In this document: positions 5,650 through 39,229 of the stretch, piece after piece
How positions within the stretch are numbered: position 1 is the stretch's first letter
Layout of the letters: each line of letters begins with the position of its first letter
Source of the DNA: Tubulanus polymorphus
Lineage: Eukaryota > Animalia > Nemertea
Direction of reading: 5' to 3'
Assembly (NCBI RefSeq): GCF_964204645.1
Contig: NC_134025.1
Location: 23,602,299-23,666,298 of the forward strand
DNA length: 64,000 bases
Notes under the pieces: generated by a model
The model's input: the letters and a program-made list of their open reading frames with translations, nothing else
What the model was told of the DNA's origin: nothing
Database searches by the model: none
Made by a program: the position numbers and the translations under genes

Positions 5650-7184
5650 ATGGATTGGAATTCCGTATTTCTATGTCAGATTTTTACATATATCATGATT
5701 GTGAGTATTCTACGTTGCATATAAGATGGTAAATTGACGCAAAAGATATTAAGGATAAAAATTAACATTTGCTCGTGTTTGACTCATGGATAACCACTCA
5801 TTTATATTGAAAATTTGTATGTAGATATTGGTTTCACCGTTCCCAGTATACGAAGTGGTCGAGTACGGTCTAACGGATAGTGATTTGGAGGAGGGGAACT
5901 TTGTAGAAGTAGATAGTGATAGTAACATTAAGAAGCAGCTTAATTCGGAAAGTACCGAATATAATTCATCGTCTGATTTACTGAAAAGGGAATCCGTGGA
6001 ATTAGTCGAGTTCAGTGACGACGATTGGATCAATAAATGGGAACAAGATCTTGAAAATGATCCTTGGTGGAATGAAAGCGATTATGATTACAATCTTGAA
6101 TCAGATGACGAAGAACATGGTGTAAAAGATACAAGGGCTGCAGTTAATGAATTAGGATTGCCATCGGGTGAGTGGGATTAACATCTTCCTATTCAACATG
6201 GCAAATGCAACGCATAAACTGATAAGACTATCCAATTATGTGTAGATAATGAACAAGGAAAGGATGCTACAGATTTTTCGCCGATGGAATCAAATCAAGA
6301 CGAACAAAAAAAGGATGAAAATAAATATTTAGATTCGTTTCTAGACGGCAGTGGATCCGGCGACCAAGGTCTAGTATTCAAAATACGAAAAATAACAAAA
6401 TATACAAACTGCGCCTTGACCTTTTCAATAATGATTTCAGGTAGTGCTTCAGAACCACAAGCTTTCCTAGATCCAGGTAGGTATTCTAGTGAATATATAC
6501 ATTCTGTAACACGTTTAGTGCAGTGAAAGTTTCAAGGTGCATGTATTCATTCAATTAACGATTTTTCTTATACACAGAAATAGATAATTGCGGAATTTGG
6601 GTGAAGTGTCAGATTGAATTTTTGAAGTCGTACGAATCATTCGTGAACGCCCTCCCGCGATGCCCATGCTATTATCCGATGGGGTTGAAGTATTTCAGCG
6701 AGGTATGGGACAATGTGTCCGAAAGATACATCAGGTGGAAAGACATTGATGGTAAAAATGAACGTATCGATGTTTACAAACCGGATGCGGTGAACTGTAT
6801 CCGATCGGAATCACCGGGTTCATCCGTATTATCTGCTCAGGTTTGTTGCTACGATACATGGATGATGCTGATAACAAGGGGTCGAGGGGCCGGTACTTTG
6901 AATCTAGTAAGCCCAGACATTTCTTATACTTTACATCAGAAGATGGATATTCAACCGTGGGTCGTCTGTAAAGGTAACTGGTCAAAGTAAGAAATGATTT
7001 GATTATGTGCATTGAATTTCTGTCGAGATGTCCAGAAGTTGTTCATTTTCATCTGGAAAGTATTTCCTGTTTTCTCATTATCAGGTACCAACTTGGGCGA
7101 CCGACCGACAAACAAAATAACTGTTTGCCAAACCCAGAAGATACGGAATTTAAAAAGCAATTTAAAGAATTGATGTACAGATGA
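5650..7184 (+). CDS. ISM: Isthmin-like secreted AMOP-domain protein (exons 5650-5700, 5825-6167, 6246-6368, 6441-6476, 6578-6986, 7085-7184)
   Basis: Signal-peptide-like N-terminus (MDWNSVFLCQIFTYIMIILVSP). The C-terminus (LPRCPCYYP...YKPDAVNCIRS...AQVCCYD..MLITRGRGAGTLNLVS...DIQPWVVCKGNWSKY..RP) matches the isthmin AMOP domain residue for residue in its motifs. Confidence 0.9.
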
Positions 7185-11200: not shown

Positions 11201-14200
11201 TTTCATATGCAAGATGTAACACTGATAATTGAAATCTAAAATAACTTTTTTCCCGGATTTTCAAGCCAGTATCTTGTATGCCGTAGCTATAGCTACATCA
11301 TGTAATAAATACGTACATTACCGAGTATGGAAGTTGCCAGCCATGATTGGTTGGTTTCGTAAATCTAGTGTAGAAATGCACCTGAAATATAAAACACACC
11401 GCTAGGCATCAAATTGCGAATAGTTAATTTTGACCACAAGAAACATAGCAGCAGGTAGCAAGGTAACGGTTTATATGGAAAGATCTCTACAAATCTAAGC
11501 AGTTGTGTTGAATGGATAAGATTCACAAGCATTTTTTCCCCACCAACAAACCCTTCAAGGGTAAAACAGCTATCGTTCATACCTGATTAATTTTTAGAGT
11601 CGCTAACAGCTGAATAGTTGACTTAAGAGTTTCCTGAAATGCAGCAAACATATTCACAATGAATAAACAAAAACAAGCCAAACAGAAAAATTTCATATAC
11701 TTGCATACGCACCACAGTAGGGAGTCTTCCTTTAGATAGGTCCAATAGCACTCCTCTGACTGGCAATGCCGGGTGATCTAGAATCTGAAATATTGATTCA
11801 AACACCGTCAAAGACTTTGGTAGACTGGTATTAAGCGTACAGCTATTTTTGTTGCAGCAGAAAGTCAACAAAATCAGTTTACCTTTAAAGATGGAATTCC
11901 GTCGTCTTTAGTACACATAACTAGCATTTGACTGAATGTACATATTGCATAATATAACCCAGCTAAATCGTGTGATACAATTTTGATCTGTAAGAATAAT
12001 TGAAAATTACACAAACATAATGAAGTAGATCGAGTGATATAAACGTCCTGAACTTCATCGAACTGGATTAAGCAAGCTAGAACAAATTTGTCACTGAATT
12101 CTGGATTCCTGTTCGGAACAAATGATACGGTGATAAATCAATCTACATACCACATCATTATTAACTGATAATGAATATCCCTCGGGTTTGTTGACTAGAC
12201 GGGGATTTATATGACACATAATGTGCGGTTCATCTAATTTAACCGATGCATGGTGTAAACTCAATTCTAGAGAATATCCGAGTGTTTTTAGATAGTCTCG
12301 TTGTGATTCCCATATTCGTTTCATTTGCTGAACTGATTCTGAAATTTTGATATCAGTCGGTCACACATTTTGTGTATTTTCAGAACAAATTACTCCTCTA
12401 CCTGGTTGTATTCAATTACTGGCACTTTGAAAATTACCAGACTTACCAGAATGTGGTCCTGGAATGATACAAATTTTCAGATTTTCGGCAGGTTTGAATG
12501 GTTTTCCTTCTCTTTGGATGATTTTCTGAGGGGTTGGCCATAATAAATGCAGTCTGGTATCTGTGACTATGTTCGGCAAACTGGAATTGCTCAAACGTGG
12601 CTGAAATTGAATTAAAACCATGAAAATGTTCGAAGTTTGCATAAAAAATTGACTGATTGAAAAACCCATCTGGATATGTCAAAGATCCTTTCTCAAAGTA
12701 TACCCATCATGGATTTCAATAAAAATGGGAAATAAAGTGAATAATAAGTAGGCTAAAAAATCATAAGAATATTAAATGATCTAAATACTTTTTCACTGGA
12801 GATAGTATTTTGTTCTATTGGAAGTATTTTAGCAGGCAGTTCCGTAGGTGAATTGCACTTGTTCATATTCAGATCATTCAATTCTGAAAAACGAGATTAC
12901 AGTGTTTTATTGTTAATTACCTTCGTAACCTTTTCTGGTTACTTTGATAAATTCAACGATTAAAGCTCGACTCATTCAGGGGTCAGATTGCTGATTTTTC
13001 AAATTTTTTTTTCACATCCTTACGACTGGCTTTTATATCACAAAAATTCCACGCTTTTTCATTTTTTTTCCACATAACTTTTTTACAGATTTTTCTAATT
13101 TATTCACAATCCACAGGCAGAATCCACAGTTTTTACATCAATCTGACCCTTGCTCTTTTAAGTTGAACTTTTTCCACGAAGCTGGGACCAACAGGTAAAA
13201 TTAATCACAAGCTTACCAGAAGCGAGGTCATCGGTTGAGACATTTGTTATAGGACTTTGACCTCCAAGCTCAATTATTCTTTCCATGTTTGTGCCTTTGG
13301 CCATTTCAAGAGCTGATAAACCAGCATATTTGCTTGAAAATTATTTCATAATCATAACATATAAATTTTCTTTCTATGATTTAATTACTAGTAAAGATTA
13401 TCAGGAATGTTATCATGGTATTTGTCATACCCGAATTCAGCTTTGATTGAAGAATCAGCACCATAACTGATCAGTTCCTCCACTATGCTAATATCTCCTC
13501 TACAAACTGCATCATGAAGCGCAGTACTCCCTTGAGCATTTTGTACATTTATGTTAGCTCCATGTTCTATAAGAGATAATATAACGGTATCATTAGAGAA
13601 TGGATGAATATTAAAATCTCTTAGGAAAAAGCCACACATATAGGCCTATACCATCAAAGATTATCATTTTTCGTTTAATTCACTGACCACATAGACATTG
13701 GATCATTTCTTTGTCCGCAAAGCTAGCTGCCCAGTGCAATGGTGTGTTCTGACTTTCAGCACTATCTATCAAGTTTATATCAACACCAGCATCCAATATC
13801 TCACAAACACGAACAACACTAATAAAGGAAATATAAGGAATTAGTAAGATTTCTCATTGCTGTTTTAATATCTCCGTCTATAAATCTTACTTTGATTGAG
13901 CCACTGCCTGCAAAAGTTCAGTGTTGAAAACCTCTAATACTTTATCCATGGTAGCGCAATTGAACGGCGACACGCCGTTCTTGTTCCGTAAACCGGGATC
14001 AGCACCAGCGGCAAGTAATGTTCGGACAATATCAGGTCGACCAAGCTATTGGGAAATAACATATTGATCACAATAATAATGATAGTAAATTTGTATATGT
14101 TCACCAGCGCTTTTATTATAGTGATACTGAATTAGATCATAACAACTGGAAAAAAGAAATGTCCCAAACTGTTCATTAATTCTATTTACCTTGGACGCTA

Positions 14201-17139: not shown

Positions 17140-17638
17140 AATTTCTTTCTTCGATGATCAAATTCAGCTTAAATCTTAATGCTACAAAACAGTAAAACAC
17201 TATTACTCGGCGCAATTAGAAATAACATTTCCCTAATATGTGTTCCTAGTCTAGCTCTAAAACCTTTGCCTAACCCTAAAATCTTTATACCCTAATTGTT
17301 AAAACTAATTTTTTTCTAATCAAATTTAATCATTAGGTCAGCAACATAGCGTTTAGTGGAATATATGCCTTATTTGCAAAGAATCGACCCCTCAATTTAA
17401 AATTATGATTTAATCTTCATTATCTTAAGTATGACATTGCAGGATAAGTGTCACCAGGGTCACATGACATAATGAAGCCGTTGGGCTGGGAATGGGTTAG
17501 AAACAGGGGCCAAGGGAGATTGGGAGGATGGACCACCACTACTTATTCGTCCTGTATCAATAAGCTTAAGGCATTGTTTCCAAGAACCCGTAAACGACTG
17601 GTATTCAGAGACTCGACCAGCGCACACAGGGCCCAGCC

Positions 17639-17706
17639 TAGTCTGAATAAACCAGGCAATGTACGGGTTCCCCGATGTTTGGGAACAATGGCTAGATACT
17701 CGACTA
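17639..17706. mobile_element. 68-bp palindromic micro-element TAGTC...GACTA flanked by a 9-bp direct repeat GGCCCAGCC
   Basis: GGCCCAGCC at 17630-17638 and 17707-17715 flanks the element exactly. An inverted related copy lies at about 17570-17613. Confidence 0.55.
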
Positions 17707-18487: not shown

Positions 18488-21400
18488 ATGCGTAACAAGT
18501 CTTCGAATCACAAAGAACAGAATACGTTTAAGGTACCGGTACCGCAGAATCAAAATAGACGTGGCGTAGAATTATCTTTCAGTAATCATTTGAAAAGAAT
18601 GAAGATAAAACTTCTAAACAGTTTCAAATTCAATTCAACGAAGAACTTAAACAGTGCGATGTTGCGGGAGTCAACAGGTATAACATTGATGCGTTTGAAT
18701 TGAGCATCACGGCAGCAATTCACTTTGGTAATAAAATGCATTCTCATGACCTCAGAGGGTTTCCGTTGTTTTTCTGACTTAAAATACTGAGAAAACTTGA
18801 ACTTCCATCCCACCCACGGCCACACAGCACAAATGCTTCCATGACCAGAGGCGGGCATGCAACAGGATTTTTTCAGCAGAATACTTCTCCAAAATATTCT
18901 TTGAGAAAATTACTACTACAGACTTTGTTTTTGCACGGTACATGAAATGATAGTTTCCATGGGGTATGAAACTGAAAGGTTAAAAAGGCTTCAATATTAA
19001 AACTATATTGTTAGGGCCCAAAAAGATGACAGACCTCTATAATGATTTTTTTCTGGGGCCCCCTGGAATTTTCACGTCAGGATTCTGGGAACTCAGCCTC
19101 AGACTTGGAACTAACATGCAACAACTTTTATGGACATGCAATGTTTCAACAGTTAATTTGTTGTTTCGTTTTTTAGTTTCAGACGTTCACTGATCGGATT
19201 GCGAGTATCAATGTTGATGTTATCCGCAGGATAGGCAAACGTACAGAAACTCCTGAGGTAAAATTATTAAGCCACTTGCATGAGATTGGCTGCTGGATTG
19301 TACATTGTCTCCAGTTCCAGTTAGATTCAACTCTTGAGTTGAAATGAATTCATCTTAAGTTAGTCGAATGAATTCCTAACTCAGAACTATGGAACTGAAC
19401 CCCTGACTCTCTTGTATTTCAGGATGCAGATACATTTTTCAGCGAGAACCTTCAAAAATGGATCGATTTGAATTGCACTCAACACTTTAGTAAGTGATCG
19501 GATTTATTCAGTGCGTTTATATTCACATAACTTGAAAGCTAAGACACTTCCTAAAGGCCTGTAGAATCAGTTTGTTGTAGCTTGATTGTTGATCAGTTTC
19601 TTTCATTTCCAGCGACCTTCCGCAAAGAGATATCTAGTCAAGTCCAAAGTCTACCTCAACTTCTGTTCCACGAGGTGATTCAAGAAAACAAGCAGAAAAT
19701 TCAACTGCATTATTGAACCAGTAATGGAATAATCGATATTTTAACTATTTTCAGGCAACTATTGCAGAGGCTTTAAAAAGACATCTGCAGGTTCCAGAAT
19801 CTTTGGCATTAGAGCCCCTTCTTGAGTAAGTAAAGGAAAAACATGAATTATTACCTTTCTCTGTTAGAAATAATGAAATTTATTTAACTTTCCCATGTTG
19901 CATTGGAACCTGATTTAGTCAGAGATGGAAAATTCACTTATGATACCAAACTAGTATATATCAAGACAAAAATAATGAGGTATATGTAGTCATACGGTGC
20001 TTTTAACCCAATTATTGCTTTGATTTCAGTCTTACAGTGCATCTAGCTCGCGATTTACAGCAAGACTTCTACCCAAAATTTGCCAGCTTCTTTCAAATTA
20101 TTATTGGGCTTTTAGAAAAACACCATAAAAATGCGGAAGTATTGGAACAGCTTTTTACAACGCTGTCGTATCTGTTCAAATTCCAGTGGAGATATATGAC
20201 ATCGGATATAAAAACAATATTTAGGTGAGTATGGAAATATAATTGGACATTAGAATAGATGATTGTGACATTCACATTCATTAGTCAGACTACATGAAAC
20301 CCTATGTTGGCCTCCATTGACGCTTGTGACTATATGAAACCCTGTTTTTGCCTGCTTTGTAGCTTATATCTGCCACTATTGGATGGAGACAAGAAACACT
20401 ACATTCGTCGCTTTGCCGCTGAGAGTTTTGGATTTCTTGTGCGCAAAGTAAGATATGGATTTTGAGACGTGTTTGCTATGAAAATTGACAAGGCAAGTGA
20501 AGAAGAAAAATATTGATTCCTGTATTTCCAATTTCAGTGCAGAGACCAGGATGAATTTTTCTTGTACATATTGAAATGTATAGAAGAAAACAAATCAGTA
20601 AGTTTCCCCTGAATCCAAATTGTACTGAAAAAAATGAATTGTAGAATTTTTGTAGCTTAAAACTATTCTTGATTTTCAGTTAGTGGATGGTATCGGTCGA
20701 GTGATATTTGAAGTGGTGAAAGGAGTAAAAGAAAAATTGCATAGCAACGCGGAAACTGTTAGTATCAGCCTTTCTGTTTTCCCCAGTGGTTAGGAGTTAA
20801 TTGCTGTGATTTGATTTCTTGAACATTTCTCACCTAGGTTTTGAAGTTATTGCTATCAAGGCTGAAGCCATCAACTGAATATTCTCCTGATTTGGCGTAT
20901 GAATTGCTTGAAGTGACTTTACAGTGTATTCTAGAACATACCACAAAAGATAATTTGGCTATTGTTTGGAAAGTGGTGCAGGTATGATGAGCATTACAAA
21001 TCTTCTGGTCAGTATTGCGCAGTGTAGCAAACTATGTTTCATCGTTCTTTCAATTCTTACAGAATTGCGTCGAAAGTCAGCACGAGGTTCATGAGAAAGC
21101 GCGAGGAAATAAACGCATCGAACAAGGCCAATATAAACACAGATTGCTGCAAGTGCTGCTGTTACTAGTCTCTCATAAAGATGGCGTCGTTATTTATGAC
21201 GTGGAATCATTGTGCATCGTAAGTTCAGGAATTATGCTGAAGAATGATTATCGCACCTAGTTCTCGGTAGTTAAACATTGAATTAATCAATGGAATTATT
21301 TGATTTGTGCTAGTTGTTGGTGAAGTTGCTACAAGGCGATCATCAAGATTATGAAGTCACTGACGTTCTTTTCAATGTAGTGTCTAGTTTATTAATGTCA

Positions 21401-24400
21401 CCTCATTGCAAGCTCTCTATTACTGATATTCCGAAGCTCATTTCATTAGTAAGTTTTGTACATTCTTTTAAAACCCCTTTGTATGCGATGACTTAGTTAA
21501 AATTGATAGTGCTCGTTTCTAACTCGTTCAGGTGTTCAAGGCAAAATGTTCTCGTCATTTACAAATCGCATTTACTGGCCGAATGTTTTCGATGAACATG
21601 TTCGAGAAGGATATGTTACCACCGCTGCTTAATTTCTGTCACACGATCATCAGCGCGAAAGATGAGGAAGCCCACATCGATGTTTTAGCCCTTGTGACCG
21701 AGCTCCTGTTGTTGAAAGCTCCGTTACATGTGGATAGTTCTACGTTGGATACCTTTCACTCTTACATGCTTGATTTTAGCGTCGTTCAAAAAGGGTAAGT
21801 TCATCTGAACATCCGATAAACTGGATGCATTTGATTTTGATTACAAAATGACTCGCGTGAATTGATTGTAATTCTTCATTTGTTTGTCGTCGATGGGTGG
21901 TCATTTAGTCCCATGAAGAACGTGTTATTATCATGACTAGATGCACACTCATCGCTGACTTGCAAAACTTGCTGCAGATAAAAAGTATATGATGTTGGTT
22001 GTTAAACTTAACTAGCTTTTGATACGGTATTTTGCTTCTTATTCATGGATTAAGTATGTTTTGATGTATTGATGTTGTCAATGGATGGGTGAATGTCTTG
22101 TCCATGTCCACGTAGAAAGCATGACTAGATATACACTCATCCCCTTACAATATTCTAACCTTCATTTCATTGCCTGTTTCTTGCGATAGGAGTTACGTTG
22201 TATTCTGAGTGCTCCACATATTGGCTGAATTTATGGTTACGATGATGGGTATTCATCTAGAGCTTGTGGCGTATGTTTCATGACTAGATGTATACTCATC
22301 CTTGTTATCGTAAGAAATCTACTCGACTGGAAAATGCTTATTGTGTGAATGCGGTTTGAGATAGATGTGTACCTCGCTAGTCTATGTAGTGATCGTTTCA
22401 TGACTAGAAAGTTACTCATCTATGTCGAACTGAAAGAAACGCTGGAAGGAAGGTACTCGGCCAGAACTGCATTACCGATTCTTGCCTTAGATGAATGTCT
22501 ATCTAGTCCATGTTCTAAGATTTCATGACTAGATGAACACTCATCCCGGGCATGAATCCCCATCGTTGGTCGACCTTTGAAAATTCCTTCAAATCTCTTC
22601 AACGATGAAATTGTCGTATGTGCTGGGTTTATGTCTAGTCCATGCTTTATCGAACACATGACTAGATGTATACTCATCTCGTAAGGCTATTATAAACGGC
22701 TAATGATTTGATCGTTTATTAAGGCGCTCAGTGCGATGAATGTTTGTCTCGTCCATGAATCAAAATGACATGACTAGATATACACTCATCTCTTATGTCC
22801 CGCCATAATCAACAGTGGTGAAAGAATAGAAAGGATTTCGTACTTCTCTGTCCAGATCTGCTCATAGCTTTGATTTATTTAGACTCTTTTGATACTTTGA
22901 ATTACAGTTCATTTGAATATTTCAGGATAGTGCGTCGTGCGCGTACATTTCCGTCATACATTCTGTCAGTAATCGATGAATGTAATCTCGATCAGCCGCT
23001 GAATATCTGGGCTGCACTTGTCTGTTTGCCTCATATCCGTCCTATCGATGATAAACAATATAACGAAGCCGTGTCAACTGCAATAGATAAGTTGCTAACT
23101 TCTCTTGAGACTACACCCGAGTCAACTGAAGGTATTTGAGTTGTTTATTATGTTCCTTTAAAGGTGTATAATTTTGGCCTATGATATTCCATTATATGGT
23201 ATTGTATGGTTTAGTAAACAGGCAAAATGTGTGAAATAAAAGTTAGTAACTATAGTTTTAATGAATATTCACGAGTTTTTGGATTTCACGCTTTTACATT
23301 TTAGATGTCAAAGAGGCATTATTATTTCAAGCTATCCATTGTCAAATGTGTAAACAATGTCCTGGAGAATTCTATAGTTCGATTGAGTTTTTACGCCTAT
23401 TAGATTGGCTTAAGTATGTCTGCAGATATTGCGAATTTAATAATCCAACTCAACATACGGTGTTCCAAAAATTGAAATTCTTACATTCATTTATGTTGCA
23501 GGAGAAATCCCACGTCAGAACATGCTCTGAGAAGTTTTGATATCTATCTGTATTATACCGTTACGAATGGACATGAAGAGAATATCAGTAATGAAACATT
23601 CCAAGATGTTTATTCCATATTGAAATGGAATCTAGCATCATCTAGTCACCAAGTAAATATGATATTATATATTTGATGGATATCTAGACTTATCGTTAAC
23701 TCGTCGGTTTTCTGATGTATGTCCTTGGTACGTTTAGGTGCGTTTGATGTCGTTGCGAATTTTATCCCAGTTTCCTCTACGCTACCCAACACTAGAAGAT
23801 CAGGGCGCTGAACAGCTCGGTGTATTTCGTATATGCCTAGAAGCAGAACTAGTACCGCTGACAGTGCACCACTATCGCACTAAATTGATGTACCTGCAAA
23901 AACTAGAATGTAACATTGTTTACATTAATCTTCCAGTTATTGAGGGAAACTATATGGAGGTAACTTATACGAAAGATATTTGCTGAAATATGAATTAACT
24001 GATCAGTTTTCCTTTGAATGTTTGAAAAAGAGATTCTTTGCTAAATGTACTATAATTTTCCTATTTTTCAGGCTCCACTTCTTTTCTTGCTTGGTAATTT
24101 GTATATCAATTTTACCTTGATATGGCAACCAATAAGCAATTTGATTGCGTCATACTCGGAAGGAATGGACAGAGCACCATTCTGGAAGTTATTTGCCCAA
24201 CAACTCAAAAAAGCTACTGATATTGCAGGTAATAAAACAGATCAGATCACAGCTACCCTTTATTTACGCACAAAGTTTCCCTAATAAACTAAGTTCGAGT
24301 TAAAAATGTTTTGATCTTATAACCAGCACTTTTAATGGAATTCATATTTTGGGACCAAGATGTAGACTATGATTAAGGCAAGTTTCTCAGGCAAATTGAT

Positions 24401-27400
24401 CTGAAATAAGAGGGGAAAATCAGGACTTGTTGTAGTATGATTTGTCAGTTGACCTGACTGATCGATTTTACTCATTTTCAATGTTATAGAAATAGTCAGC
24501 TGAATGGCTAGTATTCTATATTTTTATTGCTATTTTCAGAAGCTATGGTTGGTGTCGGGGGATCTGCTGTATCTAGTACACAATCATCAAAATGCATCAA
24601 CTCTACCCAAGCACCAGATACTCTTCGACAGATTTATACTAGTCAATACCATTCTGAGTTAACGGCTCCCTACCGACCAGATCATTGTAACTATCGGCAA
24701 CTATTGTGGCAGACGATGCACCTATTTTCAGATGTTTGTGAAGCGAAATCACGTGACCTAGTACCTCTACTAGTTCGATTTTTGCAGTGAGTATTCGCTC
24801 TAAGCTTTTTGCTGACGCGATTTTTCTTGCGTGGTGAGATTTAGTGAAATACGTGAATTGACCTAATCACTTACAGAAATGAGTTCTACAGCGCTGACCA
24901 CAACAGTGCTCCGACGCAAGATTTAACCCGAAAGGTTGCTTCAGATATGGAATCGTCCGAGAAAAAAACTGACGAATGTATGGAGACTGAGAAGGATGTA
25001 AGTTTTGCAATGGAAGATCAGGAAGAAACAGAGGAGGAAAAAGAAGATGTGAAAACAAAAAGAAGTCGTAAAATGGTGATAAAGTAAGTTTTTGTCCGTG
25101 ATATAATCTGGATGACTGGTACCATAGTAGAAAAATGAATATGCCCAAAGCCTCCCTGTTCATTTAGATAATATCATTTTCTCTTATTAGGTTAATGATT
25201 GCCAAGTTACGACTGCTTGCTAAATTTCACAGTCCTTTATCAGTTTATTTGGAACCGAAATTAAAGGAGCTTTATTTTGAAGTGAGTAGTTGATACCAAG
25301 AATGTAAGAATCTACGTGATGAAACTTTCTGACACTTCATAACAATTTATATCCCTCCTTTTGTAGCTATTAGCCCATAGAAATTGTGAATTACAGAAGG
25401 TTGCGTTTGATTGTATTATGACATACAAGTACAAATACTTGATGCCATACAAGTGAGTGGGCGTCTGATTTTTTGTTCCTTTTCCAGTTTACAGAGTTCT
25501 GTCATATGAAAAGATTTTTAATTCCAGAGAAAACTTCATGCGGTTATTCGATGACAGGAGGTTCAAGACTGAAATTGTCATGTTCAGCATCGACAGTGAA
25601 AGCAATGTAATTCTTGAAGAACATCGAGAGGAACTTCTTCCAGTTCTGATGAGGTAAACTTCCGAAATATACAATTGAACTTCTAATGTGCAACGTTTTA
25701 TGTTCAATTTCATGTAAATTCATTTCGATATTCAGGATCTTATACGGAAAGATGCATAGCAAAACTGGAAAAGACACATCAGGGAAGAGTAACTCCACCT
25801 ATAGAAAGAGTATCGTGTTTAGATTCTTAGCTGGCTGTCGACAGAAGGAATTGAAAGTGTTCATTGATCTTATCTTCGGACCATTTCAGAAATTTACTGT
25901 TGGTTAGTATTGAAAAAGTTAAGTCCAATCTGAAGGTTTTATCTTTTCTTCCCACTTTTACGTATTGCCTAATGTGTTGTCTTTCATTCGCAGGTGATGT
26001 ATCTACTGTGATCTCTGAACTTGTTGATAATCTTGATCTAGAAAAGATGATCCCCATCAGAAGGCAACAGAGGTATGTTGATGCAAATCGTTTTTCTCTC
26101 CTTTAAATAGATCATATAAAGCGAATTTACCAATGTCACTTATATGCACCCGGATATCTATATTTCAGTATTCTTTCAACGATGGATGTTGTTTTCAAGA
26201 AGTTGGGTAATTTAATTGATGTTTACTTGCCTGATATGTTGAGGATAGTGTTGTGTTTGACGGCGATAACTCAAGCCGTTTTGGATCGACGGGTTCAGGT
26301 TAATCCCAAAGCCATAACAATGTTGAAAACTCTCAGGATGCTCGGTTTGACGCGTATTATCCAGGTTTGTCCTGCTCCGAAATCGATTTCTAAGCATTTG
26401 TATTTTAGGAAATTTATTCTGAAAATATATCTATAAATTTTAGTTCTTTGCTTCTTTTGAGACGTATAATTTCACCAAAGAAGAAATCGATGCAATATTC
26501 CAAGCAGCCATCTGGCCTCAGGTTTGTGAAAAGTTTAACAGAATATTTTATCTCGGGGTATTTGTATTGATCGATAAGTCGAAATTTATTTGAAATTTAT
26601 TCGATATTTTAGTTGAAGAGATTACCGGTCGAAGGGGTTTATCATCCGACAGCTTTACTGAAGCTTTTGAATGTTTGGAGCCGAGATCCTAGGTATGTAA
26701 GATATACCTGTATCTCAGGATTCTCAATTCAAATACTGGTTCGTGCGATCGATGTACGTTTCTTCTACGCTCGCATTCTCTCATTTAGATTCTTGCCGTT
26801 ATTGGGTAAATGCCTCGATGACGATCGAAGCGTGTACCCTGTACCGTTTATCGTGAAACTTCTCGTTATGAAGAATGTCAGCAAGACAGTGGTTCAGGTA
26901 GTAATGGAAATCGTCGAAAGTTTACTGACAACTGAAGATTTTGAAGAGACCGAAGAATTGAAAGCCATCGGCGATATCGGTTCAAGCGCGGAAGTCGCAA
27001 CGGACAGTAAGTTCTTAATGTTAATCGTCTTGATTGTTGTCGACGAAAAGAATTTTCAAATAACTTTTTGGTTTCGTGAATTTCAGTTGAAGTGAATTAC
27101 GGCAGTCGTCTGCTGCTTCCACACGTTCCAGTTGTGCTCCAGTATTTGAGCAGCGTTGTTCGTGAAATGACTTCTCAGAAACCGAAGAAATCTGCACCAA
27201 CCAGAGATCTTAATATTCTGTCGCAGTAAGTTTAATGCATTGATATGTTACCATGATTGTCAAATTTTACTTCATTGAATTTATTGATGTAAGTGTTTAC
27301 TCACCTGATATATTTTCAGTATAAGTCAATACGTAAAAGATGCCCAGCAAAGCGGTGTCATCATCAATTTGTTTTTGCCGTACCTTGCCCGTCTAGTGGT

Positions 27401-30400
27401 CAAAGATGAAGATGCAGAAGTGCACATTATTAATTCGTTAGCGAATCTGATCAAACAAGTTGATCAGCCTGTCGACTTCGTGATGTAAGTCCATCTACTG
27501 TAAAAACGATGAATATATGCTATATCTGGCTTTAAGCACTTAAATATCACGTGATTTGATTCTGTTACAGACCCGTCTCAAAACTTTTCTCGGTCATTAT
27601 CAACCGGTTGTCTCGGACTGCTTTGTGCAGTATTGTTTTGGTATGTATCGAATATTTAACATTCAGATTCACCTTGATGTCGATTGCTTTAAGTTACGGT
27701 ATTATTGTCATAATAAACGTCATTTCTCTTGTATTTTTTCATCAGTCTATTGCTGATAAGGCACCCTGGTTGAAAGAAGCAGCTGAAATTGTTGATAAGG
27801 TATGTACGATTAAGATATGTGAATTACAACTATAGATTCAACAGGTGATGCTAGATGATGTCTCCCACTTATACTTGTATCTTGATTGTGGAGCCTTTCT
27901 AGTGGAAGACATGAGTGTTGGTTATAAGATAAATGTTTTCCAAGAAAAATAAGGCTCCATTCATTTAACTGCCCTCCTCTCTCTGATGATAAGAACAGTC
28001 TAGTTGGATTGAGTGATAATGAAAATCATATTTCTTTCAGTTGAATTCATGGGATCCACGTCGCGTTGAAGAACCAGATTACAACACGAGATTAGATGCG
28101 TTCGAAACAATCAACAAGATTGTTCGCGAGATGAAAAAACTGCGCGAACATTTCATTATTCTAGTCATGCATAACTGCTCTTATTTTATGGCTAATGTAA
28201 GTTGTATCATCTTGATTACTTCTAATTCAAGAGTAAATTGCGGGTGAACGAGGTATGTCTACATGTTCATTCTCTACATCTGTCATTTTTCAGCTGGATG
28301 ACATTTCGATTAGGGCAAGCTCGTCGTTTTGTATGACGGAAATTATCAAAAAACTGTCGTCGATGTCGATAGAATCTTCGAAACGCCAAAACTTCCTCAA
28401 CAATGTATTGTTACCAGAAATTAGGTCTGGTCTGAGAATTAAAAAAGAGGTAATGATAGTTGAGTGACCATACCCTGCATCAGTATTTACAATCGTACAT
28501 TTTCTGTATATGATAATTCCTTCCGTCGTAGGCTCCTCGTCATGAATTCATCAAGATTTTAGCGTGCGCAGTAAGGTCCTTCCCTAAACACGAAGTATTC
28601 GCCGAATTGTCGCAATTGTGCGACGCCGAAGACATCGAAAAAGACTATTTCGAGAACATACAACACATTCAAATGCACAGGCGATCTCGCGCAATGAAAC
28701 GCGTCATGTATCTCCTAGCTGAAAAGTCGATCAGTCACAAGATATTGCTGGCGTACCTGATGCCTATGGCATCGGCGTATCTCCAGGATAGGACATACGC
28801 GGCGACGTCGCATTTGATCGACGCTGCCATTGAAATGGTCGCCGCGATTTGTAAACGTCTCCCGTGGAAACAGTACAATCAAATATTACGCCACTTTCTG
28901 GCACAGCTTCCGAAAAGTCTGGAAAATCAGAAAATGATCGTCCGGTAAGATGACCTCTTATTTTCATGAATTTAGAAGTGACGTATTATTGCATAACAGT
29001 TCATTAGATATGAAATATTCACTTTTGCAGGGTTTTGGTGGCTATTCTGGATTCATTCCATTTTGATCTCTCGGCTGCTCCAGAGTTGGGTCTTTCCGGA
29101 ACGAATGTAGCTCCACCGAAACAACTGGATGGTCGAGGTTAGTTTTTCCTTTGTTGAATTTTTGACCTGATTGAGCTGGTAAATGATATCCAAAACTCTT
29201 TTTATCTCGTGTAGATAATGTAGAAGATGAAGATGACGTTGAAGATGAGGAGAAAAATGAGGATTCTCACTCGGCTGTTGAGACTAAGTGTACTCCGGAC
29301 GAGGCGCTGAGGATCCATAGCGCTATAATCGGCTCAATTCTGCCGCAGTTACGTGGTATCCTTACGCAAAAAGTAAATGTTCATTTTCTCTCATTAGTCT
29401 TTGCAATTATACCGCTTAACAAAGTCTTACATTTGCATGTTCTAACAAATGATATTTTCTATAGTTGAATATTCATGATTGTAGGTCAAAGGAGATGACA
29501 TTCACAAAATGGCGGGGAGCAAGTATGCTGAAGATGCAGAGATTCTACGTGTCCCGATTGCTATAGCGATGGTGAAACTACTTCAGCAGCTTCCAAAGAG
29601 TACATTCAGAACATATTTACCAAGGTAAATGAGAGAATAAGAGGGGACGGCTCTTAACATCTGGACTGAATTATTATGTCATCTGTAACATTGTTTTTCA
29701 GTGTTCTTTTGAAAGTTTGTGAATTTTTACGATCGCGGACTATAGAAATCCGTGATACGGCACGCGATACGTTGATGAAGATTTTGAAATCGCTCGGTCC
29801 GGCATACTTCGTTACTATATTAAGTGAACTGCGAACAGCTTTAACAAGAGGTTACCAGTTGCATGTGCTTGGTTATACGGTCCATGCCCTTATGAAATCG
29901 ATCGAATCTGATTTGACATGCGGCATTCTTGATAAAACTCTCGCAAGTCTTGTACAGGTAACTATTCTAGCCGAGTAACTCGGAACTCCTCCAAACATTT
30001 CCGTTGAAAAAATAATTATTCCGATTGAAAGGTATTTCAAGAAGAACTGTACGGTGAAGTTTCGAATGAAAAGGATGTTCGCGGAATAACCGAGAAATGT
30101 CCGGAAGCTCGTAGTGTAAGGAGTTTCGATGCGTACGAGATGGTTGCTACGTATGTTGGTAAAGGCATGATCACTAAATTACTTACTCCACAGAAAGAGG
30201 TGAGTTACCGATCGGTGTTAGAGGCATGAATTGTATTAAGTCGAATCGCTTGATTTAATTTCTATCCAAATAACCTTGCTCCATCTAAATTGGAAGAATA
30301 TACAGTCATGAAATTGGAGTGCAGATTTTGAAATTATTCATATATCGTAGATACTAGATACGACTCATAATCGTAAAACAGTGCAACGTGTACATGAAGT

Positions 30401-33400
30401 CTTACAGCGTATTGGCAACGGTTTATTAGAGAATAAAGATCTTCCGGTTGATTCGCTATGTATGCTTGCTCACGGTCTCATTATGGAATCTCTGCCATTG
30501 ATGACTTCAGTTGCGAAGTAAGTGAAAATGTTCAGTTCAAGAAATGATTAACTAATGACTAGTTTTGTCAATTTTGATTACCAGGTTGTTGTAAACGTAT
30601 TTACTTCCCCTATTAGAAATATTTTTAGTTTTGAAAATGAGATTCTTTTCTGGTTATGGTAATATCCCATTTTGTCTTTTTGGTACGCATAGGGCAAAGC
30701 AAGCTGAGCCGGCACCAGTTGATCCAACTAAAAGACCGCCAAGCTCTCTCCTGATAACTCATGCTGCACCTAGAGGTGGAATCAAACCTAAACATAATAC
30801 AAAAACAAACATGCACATTGTGGTGGAATTTGGATTACAGGTAACGATTAATCATTGCTTGCTTACATGAATTTCAGTTAAATATGCCACATCTAACCTG
30901 AGACCTGAAATAAGATTTGTGACTTTAAGAAAATCAATGTATCCGATAATGTATCCACAGGTGTTGTATATGCTGCTGAAAAGAGGCCGTTTGATTGCTT
31001 CTCAAGGCAATAATATGGAACTACTTGACCCATTTGTTCCGATCCTTACTGACTGCTTAGAATCTAAACATATCAAAGTAGGTTGGATGTAAATGACTGT
31101 ATAATTTTCCTGCACTTTGCGAAATAAATCTTATGAAATGCTTGTGGTTATCTTTCAGATCACAACTGTTGCGTTGAGGTGTTTAGCTTGGATTATCAAA
31201 CAGCCTTTGCCTTCTGTCAAAGATTGCATCACACGAATAACAAATGCCATATTTGTGCTGCTGAAAAACTATGCCGTACCTGGCGCAGCGAAGGGTGATA
31301 ACTTTGAAATGGTTTTGATGTGTTTCAAGGTACATCCATCATCTTAGATTTCAAGAACATTTTTCCTTGAATTTTAATATTCTAAAGAACTGAAACAACA
31401 CTGTTTGTTAATGGCTTGTCGTTTATTATTAATCCTCTCTTGATCTTGGTTATTATAAAGTCCTGTTTCTAAAGATATGGCCACATTAAGTTTTTAAATC
31501 CATTGTTTGGTTTTGTTTAGGCAGTTACTGTTTTAGTGCGTGATGTTCAACACCATACAATTTCCGATGAACAACTTCAAGTATTGCTAAATTATGTTGA
31601 AGCTGATATGTATGATTTCACCAGACAATCAACTGCTTTCACTCTCTTCAAGGTACTGAAAAGCATCATTCGTAATTATGTAATTATTGATTTATTTGCT
31701 AAAGGAAATTAATAAGGTTTCCATTTTATGATTTAAGGCAATTTTGTCGCGGAAATTAACGTTGCCAGAATTGTACGAAGTGATTGAAAAAATAGAAAAG
31801 ATGTCGATAACCGATGAGTCGCCATTAGTTCGTCTGCAGTGTCGACAAGTCATCTTACAGTTCCTACTCGATTACCCGTTCACTATCAATCAGATGAAAA
31901 AACATTTGGATTTCTACGTTACGCAATTGAACTATGAACGCGAAACCGGGCGAGAGTCGGTGTTGGAGATGCTCGCGTCGATATTTATGTCGTTTCCTAA
32001 GAAACTGTTGCATAGCTATTCAGGATATTTCTTCATTCCCATGGCTGCTCAGCTGGTGAATGATGATTCGGCTAAGTGTAGGAAATTAACGGCGCTTGCT
32101 ATGAAGTCATTAATGGAAAAGGTAATGTTCAACTTTACTCAACGACGAGAGATGGAAAAGCACTAAAATAAAATCTCAGTCTCCATATCCTGTATACGGA
32201 ACAAGTGGTTAGGGTACCCCAATAACTAGTACACTTTATCTCATTTGATGTAAGACCTTTCGAGCTTACTAAAGTATAGATTCTTTGCAGATCGAAGCAT
32301 TTAAACGCGATGAACTGTTCGCTATTATCAAGCTCTGGTGGCACGATGAGAAAGTGGTTCACAGACGTCTCGCCGTTCAGTCAGTTGGACTGATGGTTGA
32401 GGTTGAGTCTGCAACATTTGAACGACGTCTGCCGGATGTTATCCCGATTATTCAGCAACAGATCGAACCAGGACGTTATTCTGAGGTATCTACCTAGACA
32501 TTTACAAGCTTTTTCAGCTACGTTTTAAACTATTGGTTGCATTGTATAAAAAATGTTGTTTTTGACGCTCAAATTTCAGACTGATACGGAAAGTGAAGCT
32601 AAAGTCATGGATCATGTTCTTTTCAACCATCTGACAACATTAGCAAAAATCCTCAAGGAATGTTACGTAATCGGCAATGCCAATCATGCAGCAGATATGG
32701 CTGTAATATGGGGTAAGTGGGCATTTTGTATCTGAACTTAGTTACTTGGATGTTTAAGTCTAAATGTAGCTTTGGAAATGATTGAATTTTATAATTGCAG
32801 ATTATGTACGTAGTCACTTACGATATTCACACACTTGGGTTCGCTTAGCTGCTGCTCAGCTATTCGGTATTCTGTTTGCCTCGCTGAAAATAGAGGACTT
32901 TAACAAATCTGATGTGTCCAGCAATGAATACATGTTTGTTGATTCCAAACTGAAGGTATGCGATGAAAATGGTCTAATGTCTAACAGACAAGTCTGAGAA
33001 ATCAAATTATCTGCTACACTATTGCAGAAATATAAGCGGATATACACTTACCTCTTACTCTTATATATACTTGCCTCTTCAGATTCGTGAGCTTACCCGA
33101 GAATTTCTCCATCAATTCAAGGGTTTCTTTGATGATGAGCTAGGTGAACAGGTAAATTGTGTTGAACATTAAACAAAAAAATTGCGTTCCACCTTGAGAA
33201 TGTTGTCGAAAAATTGCAACTAATATTTTTGTTAATGTGATGTGCTTTTAGTTAGATTCGATTACAATACAATTTTGTTTGCTAGGTCATAAAAAATCTA
33301 GTCTTCCTAGCGAAAGTTACCACTTCAGTAAATCCCGACGATCCTGTTCCTGAGAATAAGGACGACGATGAGGAGGTTGATAAGACAAAGAGAGTTCCGA

Positions 33401-34760
33401 GTCTGCGTTGGCTGATCAAAATGATGTGCAAAGAAGCTACATTTGAGGGCGCTCAGAATCAACTGACAACTGTGAAGGTAGGAATCAAATAATTATTGAC
33501 TTATTCATTATGAAGTGGTTTAACATGTTGGTTTTTCATTTGGCTTCGATTTATTTTCAGCGAACATTAGCTTTTAAATTTCTGGGTGCTATCGCCACTC
33601 AGCTGGACAAGGAGAAGCTGTCTTACTATCTGAAATTCATGTTGCCGCCAGTCTGCAGGGCCGCAACTGATAATTCATCAATTTCTGGTAAATTCTGATG
33701 AATATTGAATACTTCGAAGTTATCGGCTTTCGTGTATTTTCCAACGTCGAGAGTTGAAAGAAAGAAATAGAACTGTAAGGTTCGGTCGTTTCAGATGAAG
33801 CCCTGAAGCTGTTGGCCCAAGAAGTGCTCGAGGTGATGAAGGGAATTGTAGGTGTAGAAGCATTCACGAAAATGTACGCTACAGTTTACAAAACGATGGG
33901 CGAAAAACGTGAAGAAAGGAAGAGAAAGCGAGCAATGGATGTACGTTATTCAGCAATATACTTCACGGAAAATTTAAAATGCCTGTGTTGCCTATTCCCT
34001 TTATTAAAATCTTCAAAGCTGGGAAGAGATTTTAGAATTGCTTTTACATGGCTTATACAATTTTGGGTACTAATGAATGCTAATCACGAATGATTAACAA
34101 TTCGTAATAATTTCATTCCACTTATGGCACACTTTACCCCCCATTAAATAATGTGCAAACAGTGGATGTGGCACATTGTTTTCACAATAATTGTCGCCGA
34201 TTATTTGAAGTAGTGGATAATTATAGCATTACATCGGATTGTTGTGATGTCAGCGTAATTGTGTTCAGCTGTGACCGGAACCGATTACGGCGCATTAGCC
34301 AGTCTGGTCTTTGTGCATGGAGAGATTTACACCTGTTGAAAAAGAGCTTTGTTTTTCAATGCAAAGTCACTAAGTGTTGAGCACCAGCCGCTTCGATAAA
34401 CAATGGTTATAATCACTTAGCTCTTCAAAATTACTAATTATTTAATCCTTTGCAAAGCGAATAATTCTTCCCAATACAGTGTTTATTATTATAATTCTCT
34501 TACTTCCTCTAAAAATCTTTATGTGTGATTTATGACAGGTTTCTTAGAAGTTAGAATGTCAATACTACGTATCAATTACTGAATTTTCTTGCCTTATTTT
34601 TCTATTTCTATAGGCTATTTCAATGCCGGAGGTCGCCGCACGACGCAAGATGAAGAAGCATTTACAGAAGCAAAACTCTAAAAAACGAAAAATAGTTGAA
34701 ACGCGTACTACGAAAACTTTCAAGAAGAAAAAATTGTCCGATAAAAAGTCTGAATATTAA
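18488..34760 (+). CDS. UTP20: Small subunit processome component 20 (HEAT-repeat, DRIM), dozens of short exons
   Basis: N-terminus MRNKSSNHKEQNTFK|FQTFTDRIASINVDVIRRI. Internal motifs include LARDLQQDFYP, YIRRFAAESFGFLVRK, FLLGNLYINF, RILYGKM, NSWDPRRVEEPDYNTRLDAF, DYFENIQHIQMHRRSRA, LTRGYQLHVLGYTVH and QLNYERETGRESVLEML. Basic C-terminus ends in TAA at 34758-34760. Confidence 0.96.
21888..21962 (+). ncRNA. mir-279: miR-279-family pre-miRNA 1 (3p UGACUAGAUGCACACUCAUCGC from 21934)
   Basis: 5p arm GATGGGTGGTCATTTAGTCCCATG pairs with the 3p arm. Seed GACUAGA and ACUCAUC 3' end match miR-279. Confidence 0.9.
22080..22148 (+). ncRNA. mir-279: miR-279-family pre-miRNA 2 (3p UGACUAGAUAUACACUCAUCCC from 22122)
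   Basis: 5p arm GATGGGTGAATGTCTTGTCCATG complementary to the 3p arm, with a short loop. Confidence 0.88.
22238..22312 (+). ncRNA. mir-279: miR-279-family pre-miRNA 3 (3p UGACUAGAUGUAUACUCAUCCU from 22281)
   Basis: 5p arm GATGGGTATTCATCTAG. Extended basal stem TTACGAT/ATCGTAA. Confidence 0.88.
22356..22429 (+). ncRNA. mir-279: miR-279-family pre-miRNA 4, divergent (3p UGACUAGAAAGUUACUCAUCUA from 22401)
   Basis: 5p arm ATAGATGTGTACCTCGCTAGTCTATG pairs with the 3p arm; seed retained. Confidence 0.8.
22483..22553 (+). ncRNA. mir-279: miR-279-family pre-miRNA 5 (3p UGACUAGAUGAACACUCAUCCC from 22526)
   Basis: 5p arm GATGAATGTCTATCTAGTCCATG; basal TGCC/GGCA stem. Confidence 0.88.
22616..22684 (+). 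ncRNA. mir-279: miR-279-family pre-miRNA 6 (3p UGACUAGAUGUAUACUCAUCUC from 22659)
   Basis: 5p arm GCTGGGTTTATGTCTAGTCCATG pairs with the 3p arm. Confidence 0.87.
22730..22797 (+). ncRNA. mir-279: miR-279-family pre-miRNA 7 (3p UGACUAGAUAUACACUCAUCUC from 22771)
   Basis: 5p arm GATGAATGTTTGTCTCGTCCATG pairs with the 3p arm. Confidence 0.85.
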
Positions 34761-37687: not shown

Positions 37688-39229
37688 ATGGTAAGTACAT
37701 GGACTATAATTGGTTTCGATCGTGAATTTCTTAATCTTCTAGAAATACTTGACACAATTCCAAAATTTAGGATAATGCTTTTGAATATTGTTTTCAACGT
37801 TATCAAAATATCTAGGTTTAACTAGACGAATAATAATGTCCATAATCAATCATATCATGTTTGATAATTGATTTAATTTCATATTTATTTCAGATCCTGT
37901 CTGCTCGCAAACCTTCCGTCAACTTTCATTGCGTAGAGGATCTGGCGCGTTCAGCTGTCCAAATAGATTATGACGGTAAATATGATCTCTAAGTAAAACG
38001 TTTGAAAAAATTTGAAGTAAATACAATCCTTAGTAGACAAATACAATCCATTCGTACGCGTTAAAAATCCTCATATTCTACTTGTATTTGCTTTAAACGA
38101 TTGAATGATCGGTAACGAAAATTCGCGAGGACCAATCCTAATACATAGTTTCCTACCATTTAGATAATAATCTTTTCTTTATTTTTTCAGAATATCCAAT
38201 TCCATCGTCGTCACCGGTCAATAGCGTATGTTCTCAACAGTCTATAGACGAAACGCTGTCGTCCAGTCGAAGTTCAACGCCGCCTTCCGAAAATTCGTAC
38301 GGAGAAAGCGCCGATGAAAAAACGCCAGCATCCAAACAGAAACAGCAGAAAAAATCCCGTTCACTATTCAAAAGCCAGCAAACAACCGTACTAGAAAGTT
38401 TCTTTCTTCAGAATCGCTATCCCGATATCAGCGACATTGAAAATCTAGCCAAAAAACTTAATGCATCAGAAAGTAAAATCAAGGTACGGTATTCCAAAAA
38501 ATACATACGATCTTATTATATTAGGGGGTATCTTACGTTACCCCCTAAAACTATGATTTAATTTTTCTCCTGCATCATTTGCCCAAAACTGTATAATGAT
38601 ATATAAAAAGATATTGGTATATAAAGATCAATGAACTTTAGATTTGATTGGAAAATAGGTAATCATCTTGACGACACACTAAATTCCCGTTGAAACCATA
38701 TTTCAACAAAATCCCGCTATGCATTAAGAAACGTTTCCCTTGAGCTATAGGCTAGTTAACTCTAGCTCCAGGAAACCTCCACGACCTTTATTGTATTGTG
38801 GTGTTTGACTGTTTTGATATAGAATATTTTCACAACAATTGGAAAAAAATTACGGAATACAAAACTGTTGCATATTTTGCTTTTCATCTAACGATATCAA
38901 TTGTATATTTACAGGTTTGGTTCCAAAACAAACGCGCTCGTAACAAGCGACGTTTGGCACAGCAACATCAAGACGGGACGACATCACCGCCGTTATCTCC
39001 TCCGATTAGTGATTCCTCCGCGAAATACCAAAAAACCATCGCATGTTCGTCGCTTATGAAGAATATCAATCCAGTGTATCAACAACAACCTCAAAAGCAG
39101 CCGAATTTTTACCACCATTCACAACAGAGCCACCACGCTCAGCGACTTTGTCATAATCAGACCTACGGATTTCAGTATCAAATTCCGAACTCTCAATTTT
39201 TGTATGGATACAACTTTTATGGACTATAA
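37688..39229 (+). CDS. Divergent PRD-class (Q50) homeobox protein (exons 37688-37690, 37894-37975, 38191-38483, 38915-39229)
   Basis: Homeodomain QKKSRSLFKSQQTTVLESFFLQNRYPDISDIENLAKKLNASESKIK|VWFQNKRARNKR, with YPD and an intron between codons 46 and 47 (PRD-class hallmark). N-terminal FHCVEDLARS motif. Confidence 0.88.

Follow-up and report, generated by a model that had tools for sequence, protein, structure and literature searches.

Seven MIR-279 hairpins in a UTP20 intron of the nemertean Tubulanus polymorphus and an excess of predicted miR-279 sites in the coding sequence of the host

MIR-279 is a microRNA (miRNA) family with the seed GACUAGA (PMC4238352; see also the supplement of the Platynereis survey, PMC12257675), whose node of origin in MirGeneDB is Protostomia. 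According to the relevant part of the arthropod survey, mir-279 was amplified repeatedly in this group and formed intronic clusters in essential genes, namely POLA2 and others (PMC4238352). For lophotrochozoans, the corresponding part of the Platynereis survey gives one MIR-279 copy in Crassostrea, one in Lottia, two in Lingula, three in Capitella, two to four in Platynereis and seven genome-wide in Eisenia; the only same-family tandem given there is the Capitella pair Cte-Mir-279-o12/o13, 221 nucleotides (nt) apart, and Mir-36 adjoins Mir-279 in Platynereis, Capitella and Crassostrea (PMC12257675). Intronic miRNAs that target their own host gene have been shown experimentally, as described for Drosophila miR-92a/b acting on jigr1 (PMC4441384) and for human miR-579, which targets its host ZFR at a site in the 3' untranslated region (3'UTR; PMC4370670). 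Here we describe a 64-kb stretch of DNA from the palaeonemertean Tubulanus polymorphus (contig NC_134025.1, positions 23,602,299 to 23,666,298; hereafter the window, in whose own numbering coordinates are given), in which the longest intron of UTP20 carries seven MIR-279 hairpins, while the coding sequence (CDS) of the same gene contains more exact complements of the miR-279 seed than expected by chance. We put the probability at roughly 0.55 that this is a co-transcribed, dosage-amplified cluster that exerts feedback on its host.

The host gene was delimited by a spliced match of the window DNA to the T. polymorphus UTP20 protein P0139, with 0 mismatches over 2,708 aa and 55 exons:

18488..34760, forward strand: UTP20 (small subunit processome component 20), from ATG to stop, 55 exons, 2,708 aa
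21795..22925, forward strand: UTP20 intron 13, which bears the cluster; 1,131 nt, the longest of 54 introns

Individual exons match the Pfam domains UTP20_N, UTP20 and UTP20_C, and single exons match the human UTP20 chain in PDB (E 2.9e-37). In the UTP20 tree, the window protein groups with Lineus (support 100/100); the trees were computed under LG+G4 (no mixture) from an ab initio gene model, in which some exons are wrong, and among their rows we recognised none from ecdysozoans, phoronids, bryozoans or flatworms. Intron 13 is followed in length by introns of 673 and 644 nt, the median being 94 nt (n=54). Thirteen GT..AG joints in contigs of sequencing run X4 agree with the gene model, and one contig joint drops exactly the 1,131 nt of intron 13, again between GT and AG. 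X4 was taken to be RNA solely from its spliced contigs, as it is not so recorded; with 0 contigs covering intron 13, it says nothing on the expression of the intron. Contigs of runs X2 and X3 do cover intron 13, but they are unspliced, and two of their loose ends are mutually reverse-complementary, which we take to resemble a proximity-ligation bridge; because of both features, these contigs were treated as DNA and not as intron expression. All four runs, X1 to X4, stem from one study, and X1 may be the source of the window itself. Downstream of the UTP20 stop codon there is a single ATTAAA, at 34831, which suggests a 3'UTR of about 90 nt. As a side observation within UTP20, X2 and X3 contigs match positions 24173-24800 unspliced and at higher depth, and continue into unrelated sequence before 24173; a partial duplicate or a structural variant in that sample is possible.

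On the forward strand of intron 13, the MIR-279 arm motif occurs seven times, with starts at 21934, 22122, 22281, 22401, 22526, 22659 and 22771 and spacings of 188, 159, 120, 125, 133 and 112 nt between them. If one mismatch is allowed, 0.09 matches to the arm pattern are expected by chance in 64 kb and eight were seen, i.e. the seven exact copies and one unrelated match with one mismatch at 36222 (reverse strand); none of 100 shuffles reached this number. Each 3p arm forms one stem together with the 5p arm preceding it, as listed below (CNNC, distance after the mature sequence; Rfam, score against the mir-279 covariance model RF00754; z, relative to 300 dinucleotide shuffles):

21878..21967, forward strand: hairpin 1, predicted 3p mature 21934-21955; CNNC at +17; Rfam 58.7 bits; z -5.5
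22070..22155, forward strand: hairpin 2, predicted mature 22122-22143; CNNC at +17; Rfam 57.1 bits; z -4.6
22230..22314, forward strand: hairpin 3, predicted mature 22281-22302; CNNC at +17; Rfam 49.1 bits (below gathering score); z -4.3
22350..22434, forward strand: hairpin 4, predicted mature 22401-22422, with the most diverged centre; no CNNC; Rfam 40.6 bits (below gathering score); z -5.0
22476..22559, forward strand: hairpin 5, predicted mature 22526-22547; no CNNC at +16 to +18; Rfam 58.9 bits; z -6.9
22608..22692, forward strand: hairpin 6, predicted mature 22659-22680; CNNC at +17; Rfam 59.0 bits; z -2.9
22721..22803, forward strand: hairpin 7, predicted mature 22771-22792; CNNC at +18; Rfam 35.0 bits (below gathering score); z -2.8

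The hairpins fold with a free energy (dG) of -24.5 to -35.9 and z of -2.8 to -6.9, and the forward strand is more stable than the reverse strand in six of the seven, hairpin 5 being the exception. At a relaxed threshold all seven match RF00754 on the forward strand (35-59 bits), and four exceed its gathering score of 56; at the gathering score, mir-279 is the sole Rfam family in the window, with four hits, all in intron 13. The seed GACUAGA (nt 2-8) and the conserved 3' end are present in all 3p arms. Positions 1-8 and 14-20 of the mature sequence are invariant, variation is confined to nt 9-13, and the sole variable position of the region 13-16 is nt 13, which is C in four copies and U in three. 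Copies 2/7 and 3/6 are identical over nt 1-20, which leaves five distinct 20-mers, that of hairpin 4 having five positions changed. None of these equals the commonest 20-mer among MIR-279 loci retrieved from metagenome contigs (see below), which is the Platynereis mature sequence; the differences number one to five. Of 28 spacer pairs, 0 are similar at p<0.05; hairpins 5 and 7 are 79% alike over 56 nt, loop included. From the 5' splice site to the start of the first stem there are about 85 nt, and from the end of the last to the acceptor 122 nt; a mirtron was rejected, as the hairpin ends do not meet the splice sites.

The hairpins also bear the marks of Microprocessor substrates. With arm ends that are predicted and not read-defined, the precursors are 58-64 nt long, their loops measure 9-18 nt and 17-19 nt are paired, which is in line with the averages in the MirGeneDB 3.0 article as far as used here (precursor 60, loop 16 and paired 19 nt; PMC11701709). 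Their 5p arms end as in the star of Platynereis Mir-279, for which the pertinent part of the survey gives the 3p arm as mature and the 5p arm as star, with read support (PMC12257675). In an alignment of the seven copies, 87% of cells are standard pairs and 13 of 31 pairs show two-sided changes, counts that are inflated by a consensus structure built from the same seven sequences; 11 of these 13 pairs lie in the basal stem, the sequence of which has diverged among the copies while its pairing was kept. The paired share was equalled by 0 of 500 shuffles, and slid partners pair in 31-46%. Canonical spacings are +16 to +18 for CNNC and -14 for the basal UG. CNNC is found at +17 or +18 after the 22-nt mature sequence in five of the seven hairpins (binomial P 5e-5 to 1.5e-4, intron background), and the same interval is occupied by CNNC in 56 of 79 distinct MIR-279 hairpins from metagenome contigs; only two of the seven have UG at -14. 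Every sequence and structure test agreed with membership in MIR-279, and judged by these features the seven hairpins are very probably a real, processed miRNA cluster.

Much of this had been read from the letters alone in an earlier note on this DNA. The arm starts and their spacing of 112-188 nt match exactly, and the complementary 5p arm of each copy, the folding of each hairpin, the miR-279 identity (RF00754 and seed in 7/7) and the first 20 nt common to copies 2/7 and 3/6 were all confirmed. Its placement of the cluster on the sense strand of the largest UTP20 intron is borne out by the spliced P0139 match and the X4 joint, and its statement that no copy has the canonical centre holds as well. 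The variable block, which it had given as nt 9-14, has to be narrowed to nt 9-13, as nt 14 is invariant. Loops and spacers had both been called unrelated, which is right for the spacers but not for the loops of hairpins 5 and 7. Finally, the proposed diversification of supplementary pairing has little in its favour: nt 13 does vary, but the rest of the region 13-16 is fixed and the other changes fall at nt 9-12.

What is new is the surplus of seed sites within the CDS of the host. There, the seed complement is more strongly over-represented than any other A-ending 8-mer when synonymous shuffles serve as the control. The predicted miR-279 sites are:

19633..19640, forward strand: 8mer in the CDS of UTP20 exon 4; accessibility 90th percentile
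23641..23648, forward strand: 8mer in the CDS of UTP20 exon 16; accessibility 86th percentile
28160..28167, forward strand: 8mer in the CDS of UTP20 exon 34; accessibility 88th percentile
33297..33303, forward strand: 7mer-m8 in the CDS of UTP20 exon 52; residues conserved in many homologues
24639..24645, forward strand: 7mer-A1 in the CDS of UTP20 exon 19
21165..21170, forward strand: 6mer in the CDS of UTP20 exon 11

The CDS (8,127 nt) contains three 8mers, four m8 matches, four A1 matches and six core 6mers, and 5,000 synonymous shuffles led us to expect 0.11, 0.24, 0.48 and 0.92, respectively (P 2e-4 to 1e-3). The excess of the 8mer ranks first among 16,384 A-ending 8-mers (expectations from 400 synonymous shuffles), and three copies were reached by one of 4,511 8-mers of similar expectation. 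Junction-aware shuffles gave P 6.7e-3 and 1.3e-3 for the 8mer, and phase-specific Markov models gave P 2e-4 at order 2 and 1e-3 at order 3, so that seed sites in the host CDS exceed chance under five nulls (P 2e-4 to 7e-3), with P 0.058 under a sixth, to which we return below. The enrichment climbs with the length of the match, from 1.4x for the 4-mer to 27x for the 8-mer, and remains once the 5-mer core is conditioned on (P 0.0026). Neither the antisense CDS nor 7 kb of remaining UTP20 introns contain a site (0 in each), the 47.7 kb of flank contain 0 (forward) and one (reverse) 8mers, and 48.7 kb of other open frames contain one. The sole 8mer outside UTP20 lies at about 12192 (stretch 12185-12199), in the reverse-strand open reading frame (ORF) 12094-12360, beside which the frames look, by eye, like an ankyrin-repeat gene; the arm-like octamer of 12192 has only a weak fold (-17.8) and no 3' motif, and it was rejected as a further hairpin, being better read as a site on this frame. 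Five of the six UTP20 sites rank in the upper quartile of predicted accessibility. In 16 of 16 homologues examined, including Lineus, the aligned residues differ from the triplets behind the three 8mers and could not encode these sites. CDS sites have been described as being under selection and as inhibiting translation, in the part of that work relevant here (PMC3613578).

The position of the miRNA inside a gene whose mRNA has its seed sites resembles miR-92/jigr1 and miR-579/ZFR, with the negative feedback being only predicted here; by way of difference, all T. polymorphus sites are CDS sites, the miRNA comes as a cluster of seven copies and its host is a core ribosome-assembly gene. The cluster shares with Pdu-Mir-279-1a of Platynereis, and with the family at large, a 3p mature with the GACUAGA seed, conserved nt 14-20, a homologous 5p star end and a precursor of about 60 nt. 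It differs from annotated lophotrochozoan MIR-279 in having seven copies within 0.9 kb of one intron and at least three more at a second locus, and from the family in that the ancestral centre is missing from its copies and that a Mir-36 partner was looked for in the window and not found. With 1-7 copies genome-wide in annotated lophotrochozoans and the Capitella pair as the sole same-family tandem given, the lineage expansion put forward in the earlier note stands, and the cluster is larger than the lophotrochozoan clusters in the portion of the Platynereis survey drawn on here (PMC12257675). The closest counterparts are found in insects, i.e. mir-279/996 in the essential gene POLA2, the cluster in GB18694 of Hymenoptera and that in HMEL003294 of Lepidoptera, all of which share with the present locus a copy in an intron of a protein-coding gene, local duplication and non-seed divergence (PMC4238352). 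Compared with the POLA2 cluster, phylum and host gene are different, there are seven copies instead of two, and host targeting is not reported in the sections of that article used here (PMC4238352). Clusters of similar size may be among the arthropod clade-specific amplifications in its supplement.

A single-arm scan of metagenome contigs, in which 35 of 64 parts were read, yielded 116 loci with flanks of 0.5-3.4 kb. By the cut-offs applied here, a MIR-279-like hairpin is present in 84 of them, and 8 of the 84 hold two or more; the invariance of nt 14-20 in these loci is forced by the search pattern. UTP20 was found in none of the 116 flanks, and a tandem two-arm pattern with a gap of 92-122 nt gave 0 stretches in the metagenome contigs. 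Two loci, both unannotated and from the DNA of other animals, resemble ours: L108 (1-1083, reverse strand) has five MIR-279 hairpins in 1,083 nt, and L054 (1-1655, reverse strand) has three around an exon-like stretch, which received no name from Pfam, Atlas or PDB. Anatomy and spacing range are the same as in intron 13 and the 20-mer of hairpins 3 and 6 recurs in both, but there is no UTP20 alongside and no likeness outside the hairpins. In the MIR-279 family, clusters of several copies have thus arisen repeatedly, and the cluster by itself is a further case of a known kind, mir-279 being known for its amplification and its entry into introns; in view of the five-copy cluster of L108 and of the arthropod intronic clusters (PMC4238352, as far as drawn on), the earlier note overrated its surprise, while it missed both the second MIR-279 locus and the over-represented seed sites of the UTP20 CDS. 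In the literature searched, we found no publication pairing UTP20 with mir-279, nemerteans with microRNA and mir-279, or Tubulanus with microRNA. MirGeneDB 3.0 includes the nemertean Lineus longissimus, for which a homologous cluster may already be annotated.

Among 951,646 contigs of the DNA run X1, two align to intron 13 at 80% likeness; the copy number rests on this run, and the contig search filter can drop contigs. The first is the intron 13 locus itself (depth 41.2). The second is a 2,447-nt contig with a depth of 38.5, i.e. single-copy, which contains three same-strand arm matches of 22-29 nt:

X1 record 2, positions 1443, 1610 and 1818 (span 1443-1839), same strand: arms of the second MIR-279 locus, matching hairpin 5 twice and hairpin 2/7 once

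The arm of hairpin 5 is thus common to two copies at this locus, and the matures of hairpins 1, 3/6 and 4 are, as far as seen, confined to intron 13. Its displayed flanks are unrelated to intron 13, the stretch upstream of the arms resembles, where shown, a complementary 5p arm, and the locus is also partly present in X2 and X3 contigs. From the sequence, the genome of T. polymorphus is likely to hold at least ten MIR-279 hairpins, seven in intron 13 and at least three at the second locus, the extra three being counted without having been folded whole. A dispersed repeat, named in the earlier note as a finding that would refute it, was rejected, as were a miniature inverted-repeat transposable element and a satellite, given that 0 of 28 spacer pairs are alike and that two X1 contigs only were retrieved. 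The earlier note had also suggested looking for a neighbouring miR-36: no Mir-36 hairpin was found in the 64-kb window, where Rfam gave only mir-279 matches, and the sole exact Mir-36 seed octamer (6811) sits in an AMOP-domain exon and not in a hairpin arm.

We propose that a mir-279 copy entered intron 13 of UTP20 and was then duplicated in tandem. Drosha/Pasha would cut each hairpin co-transcriptionally from the UTP20 pre-mRNA, and Dicer would yield a 3p mature of about 22 nt beginning at the U of the conserved arm, a start that is predicted because of the homology to the read-supported Platynereis Mir-279. Seven copies giving five distinct matures with one seed would chiefly mean more dose and not an altered specificity; any new specificity would be a minor effect at most, because the variation at nt 9-13 lies mostly outside the supplementary region 13-16. 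The matures would repress ordinary miR-279 targets and also the UTP20 mRNA, the latter via the seed sites in its CDS. As one transcription event would make both the message and its repressor, the circuit would correspond to the known concept of an incoherent feed-forward loop, buffering UTP20 protein and tying miR-279 output to the transcription of a ribosome-biogenesis gene; a coupling of miR-279 output to UTP20 transcription, already proposed in the earlier note, is plausible. As for the feedback as such, i.e. a functional repression of the host, we consider the prediction slightly more probable than its opposite.

Several points weigh against such a feedback. Under the most conservative null, an order-4 Markov model trained on the CDS including the sites, P is 0.058, and if all sites of at least 7 nt are considered, the seed comes in at rank 3, 37 or 8 of 16,384 under the different controls. 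A mild over-representation is already seen for the 4-mer core (25 vs 17), and the predicted duplexes between miRNA and site are seed-only, at -11 to -18 kcal/mol. The CDS test was post hoc with respect to the region, as the 640 nt after the stop codon were checked first and the hits in exons were then seen, and the excess was judged for this single gene of T. polymorphus. In flies, the data consulted indicate that ORF sites repress much less than 3'UTR sites, 8mers being the most convincing, and that long ORFs are more refractory to miRNA sites (PMC6172730); the UTP20 ORF measures 8.1 kb. With regard to the cluster itself, hairpins 3, 4 and 7 remain under the RF00754 gathering score (35-49 bits, E 1.4e-8 to 8.8e-5), and the inflation of the pair counts mentioned above has to be kept in mind.

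The main rival to host feedback accepts the cluster as real and co-transcribed, but assumes that it merely borrows a broadly active housekeeping promoter for miR-279 dose, the CDS matches being due to chance or too weak to matter. This fits the pattern of mir-279/996 in POLA2 and of other clade-specific intronic clusters in arthropods, as presented in the part of the survey used (PMC4238352), as well as the order-4 result and the weakness of ORF sites in flies (PMC6172730, within the part consulted). There are, moreover, 0 miR-279 sites in the 640 nt after the UTP20 stop codon, so that a site in the host 3'UTR, as described for miR-579 and ZFR (PMC4370670), was not found there. What this explanation leaves unaccounted for is the exact seed complement in strand-specific, length-dependent excess, at rank 1 of 16,384 8-mers. 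For genes that are co-expressed with a miRNA without being its targets, avoidance of sites is expected, and not their gain. We regard promoter borrowing as the lesser of the two, although it is a serious possibility.

Intronic miRNAs can possess promoters of their own, and an upstream or internal promoter might drive the cluster independently of UTP20, e.g. in neurons or embryos, which would make UTP20 an ordinary target in trans. The second cluster with shared arms is compatible with this, as miR-279 need not derive from intron 13; the cluster, however, is on the host strand and its first stem, only about 85 nt past the 5' splice site, leaves little intronic room, and we deem this explanation improbable. 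Still less probable is that the copies were kept mainly for neofunctionalisation, with differing non-seed sequences reaching different targets. The five distinct 20-mers, with hairpin 4 differing at five positions, would suit it, and Drosophila miR-279/996/286 do retain distinct non-seed sequences in the account consulted (PMC4238352); on the other hand, positions 14-20 never vary and the supplementary region differs at nt 13 alone, hairpins 2/7 and 3/6 share their first 20 nt, the arms at the second locus are ones already present in intron 13, and the 20-mer of hairpins 3 and 6 recurs in the clusters of two other animals. That the unit is a repeat or consists of dead, unprocessed miRNA copies, for which the three scores under the gathering threshold might be cited, can hardly be credited, given that arms, basal-stem pairing and CNNC spacing were kept between spacers that bear no relation to one another, and that just 2 of 951,646 X1 contigs fall on the intron.

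The window contains further features, which are given here as side observations. A hairpin at 27889-27964 (forward strand) in UTP20 intron 33 (27800-28040, the fifth-longest) folds with -31.7 kcal/mol and z of -3.9 (forward) and -1.3 (reverse), z being inflated because the hairpin was chosen as a top hit of a window-wide scan; it has no convincing Rfam family and no second copy in the window, and is a candidate for a lineage-specific miRNA. Two stable single hairpins picked from the window scan, at 41100-41210 (forward strand, z -3.7) and 17575-17680 (reverse strand, z -4.8), have no Rfam match at the gathering score and may be transposon ends or miRNA-like. Neighbouring genes are represented by the AMOP-domain exon (6559-6990, forward strand) and a two-exon homeobox (38142-39229, forward strand). 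At 45648-49841 on the reverse strand, a single frame of 1,397 codons encodes a hydrophobic stretch at the N-terminus and, after it, some 1,290 residues of D/R/T/A/M repeats, without a Pfam or Atlas match; our guess is a secreted protein with a structural role, for instance in a tube or in mucus.

Coming back to the co-transcribed cluster with feedback on its host, a functional circuit would be a natural, multi-copy incoherent feed-forward loop that acts via CDS sites in an essential gene whose 3'UTR seems to be very short, and it would present a coding sequence evolving towards the miRNA embedded in it. The CDS sites would then be predicted in nemerteans with the cluster and not in those without it, and arthropod POLA2 hosts would be worth examining for the same CDS signal. 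More tentatively, and with odds that we place somewhat below even, UTP20 might have captured the seven-copy cluster and, in the same lineage, had its own CDS reshaped into a multi-site miR-279 target, thus becoming a self-contained dosage compensator. If this is true, UTP20 transcription would set both the cellular level of miR-279 and a translational brake on UTP20 itself, linking a developmental miRNA of protostomes to ribosome biogenesis.

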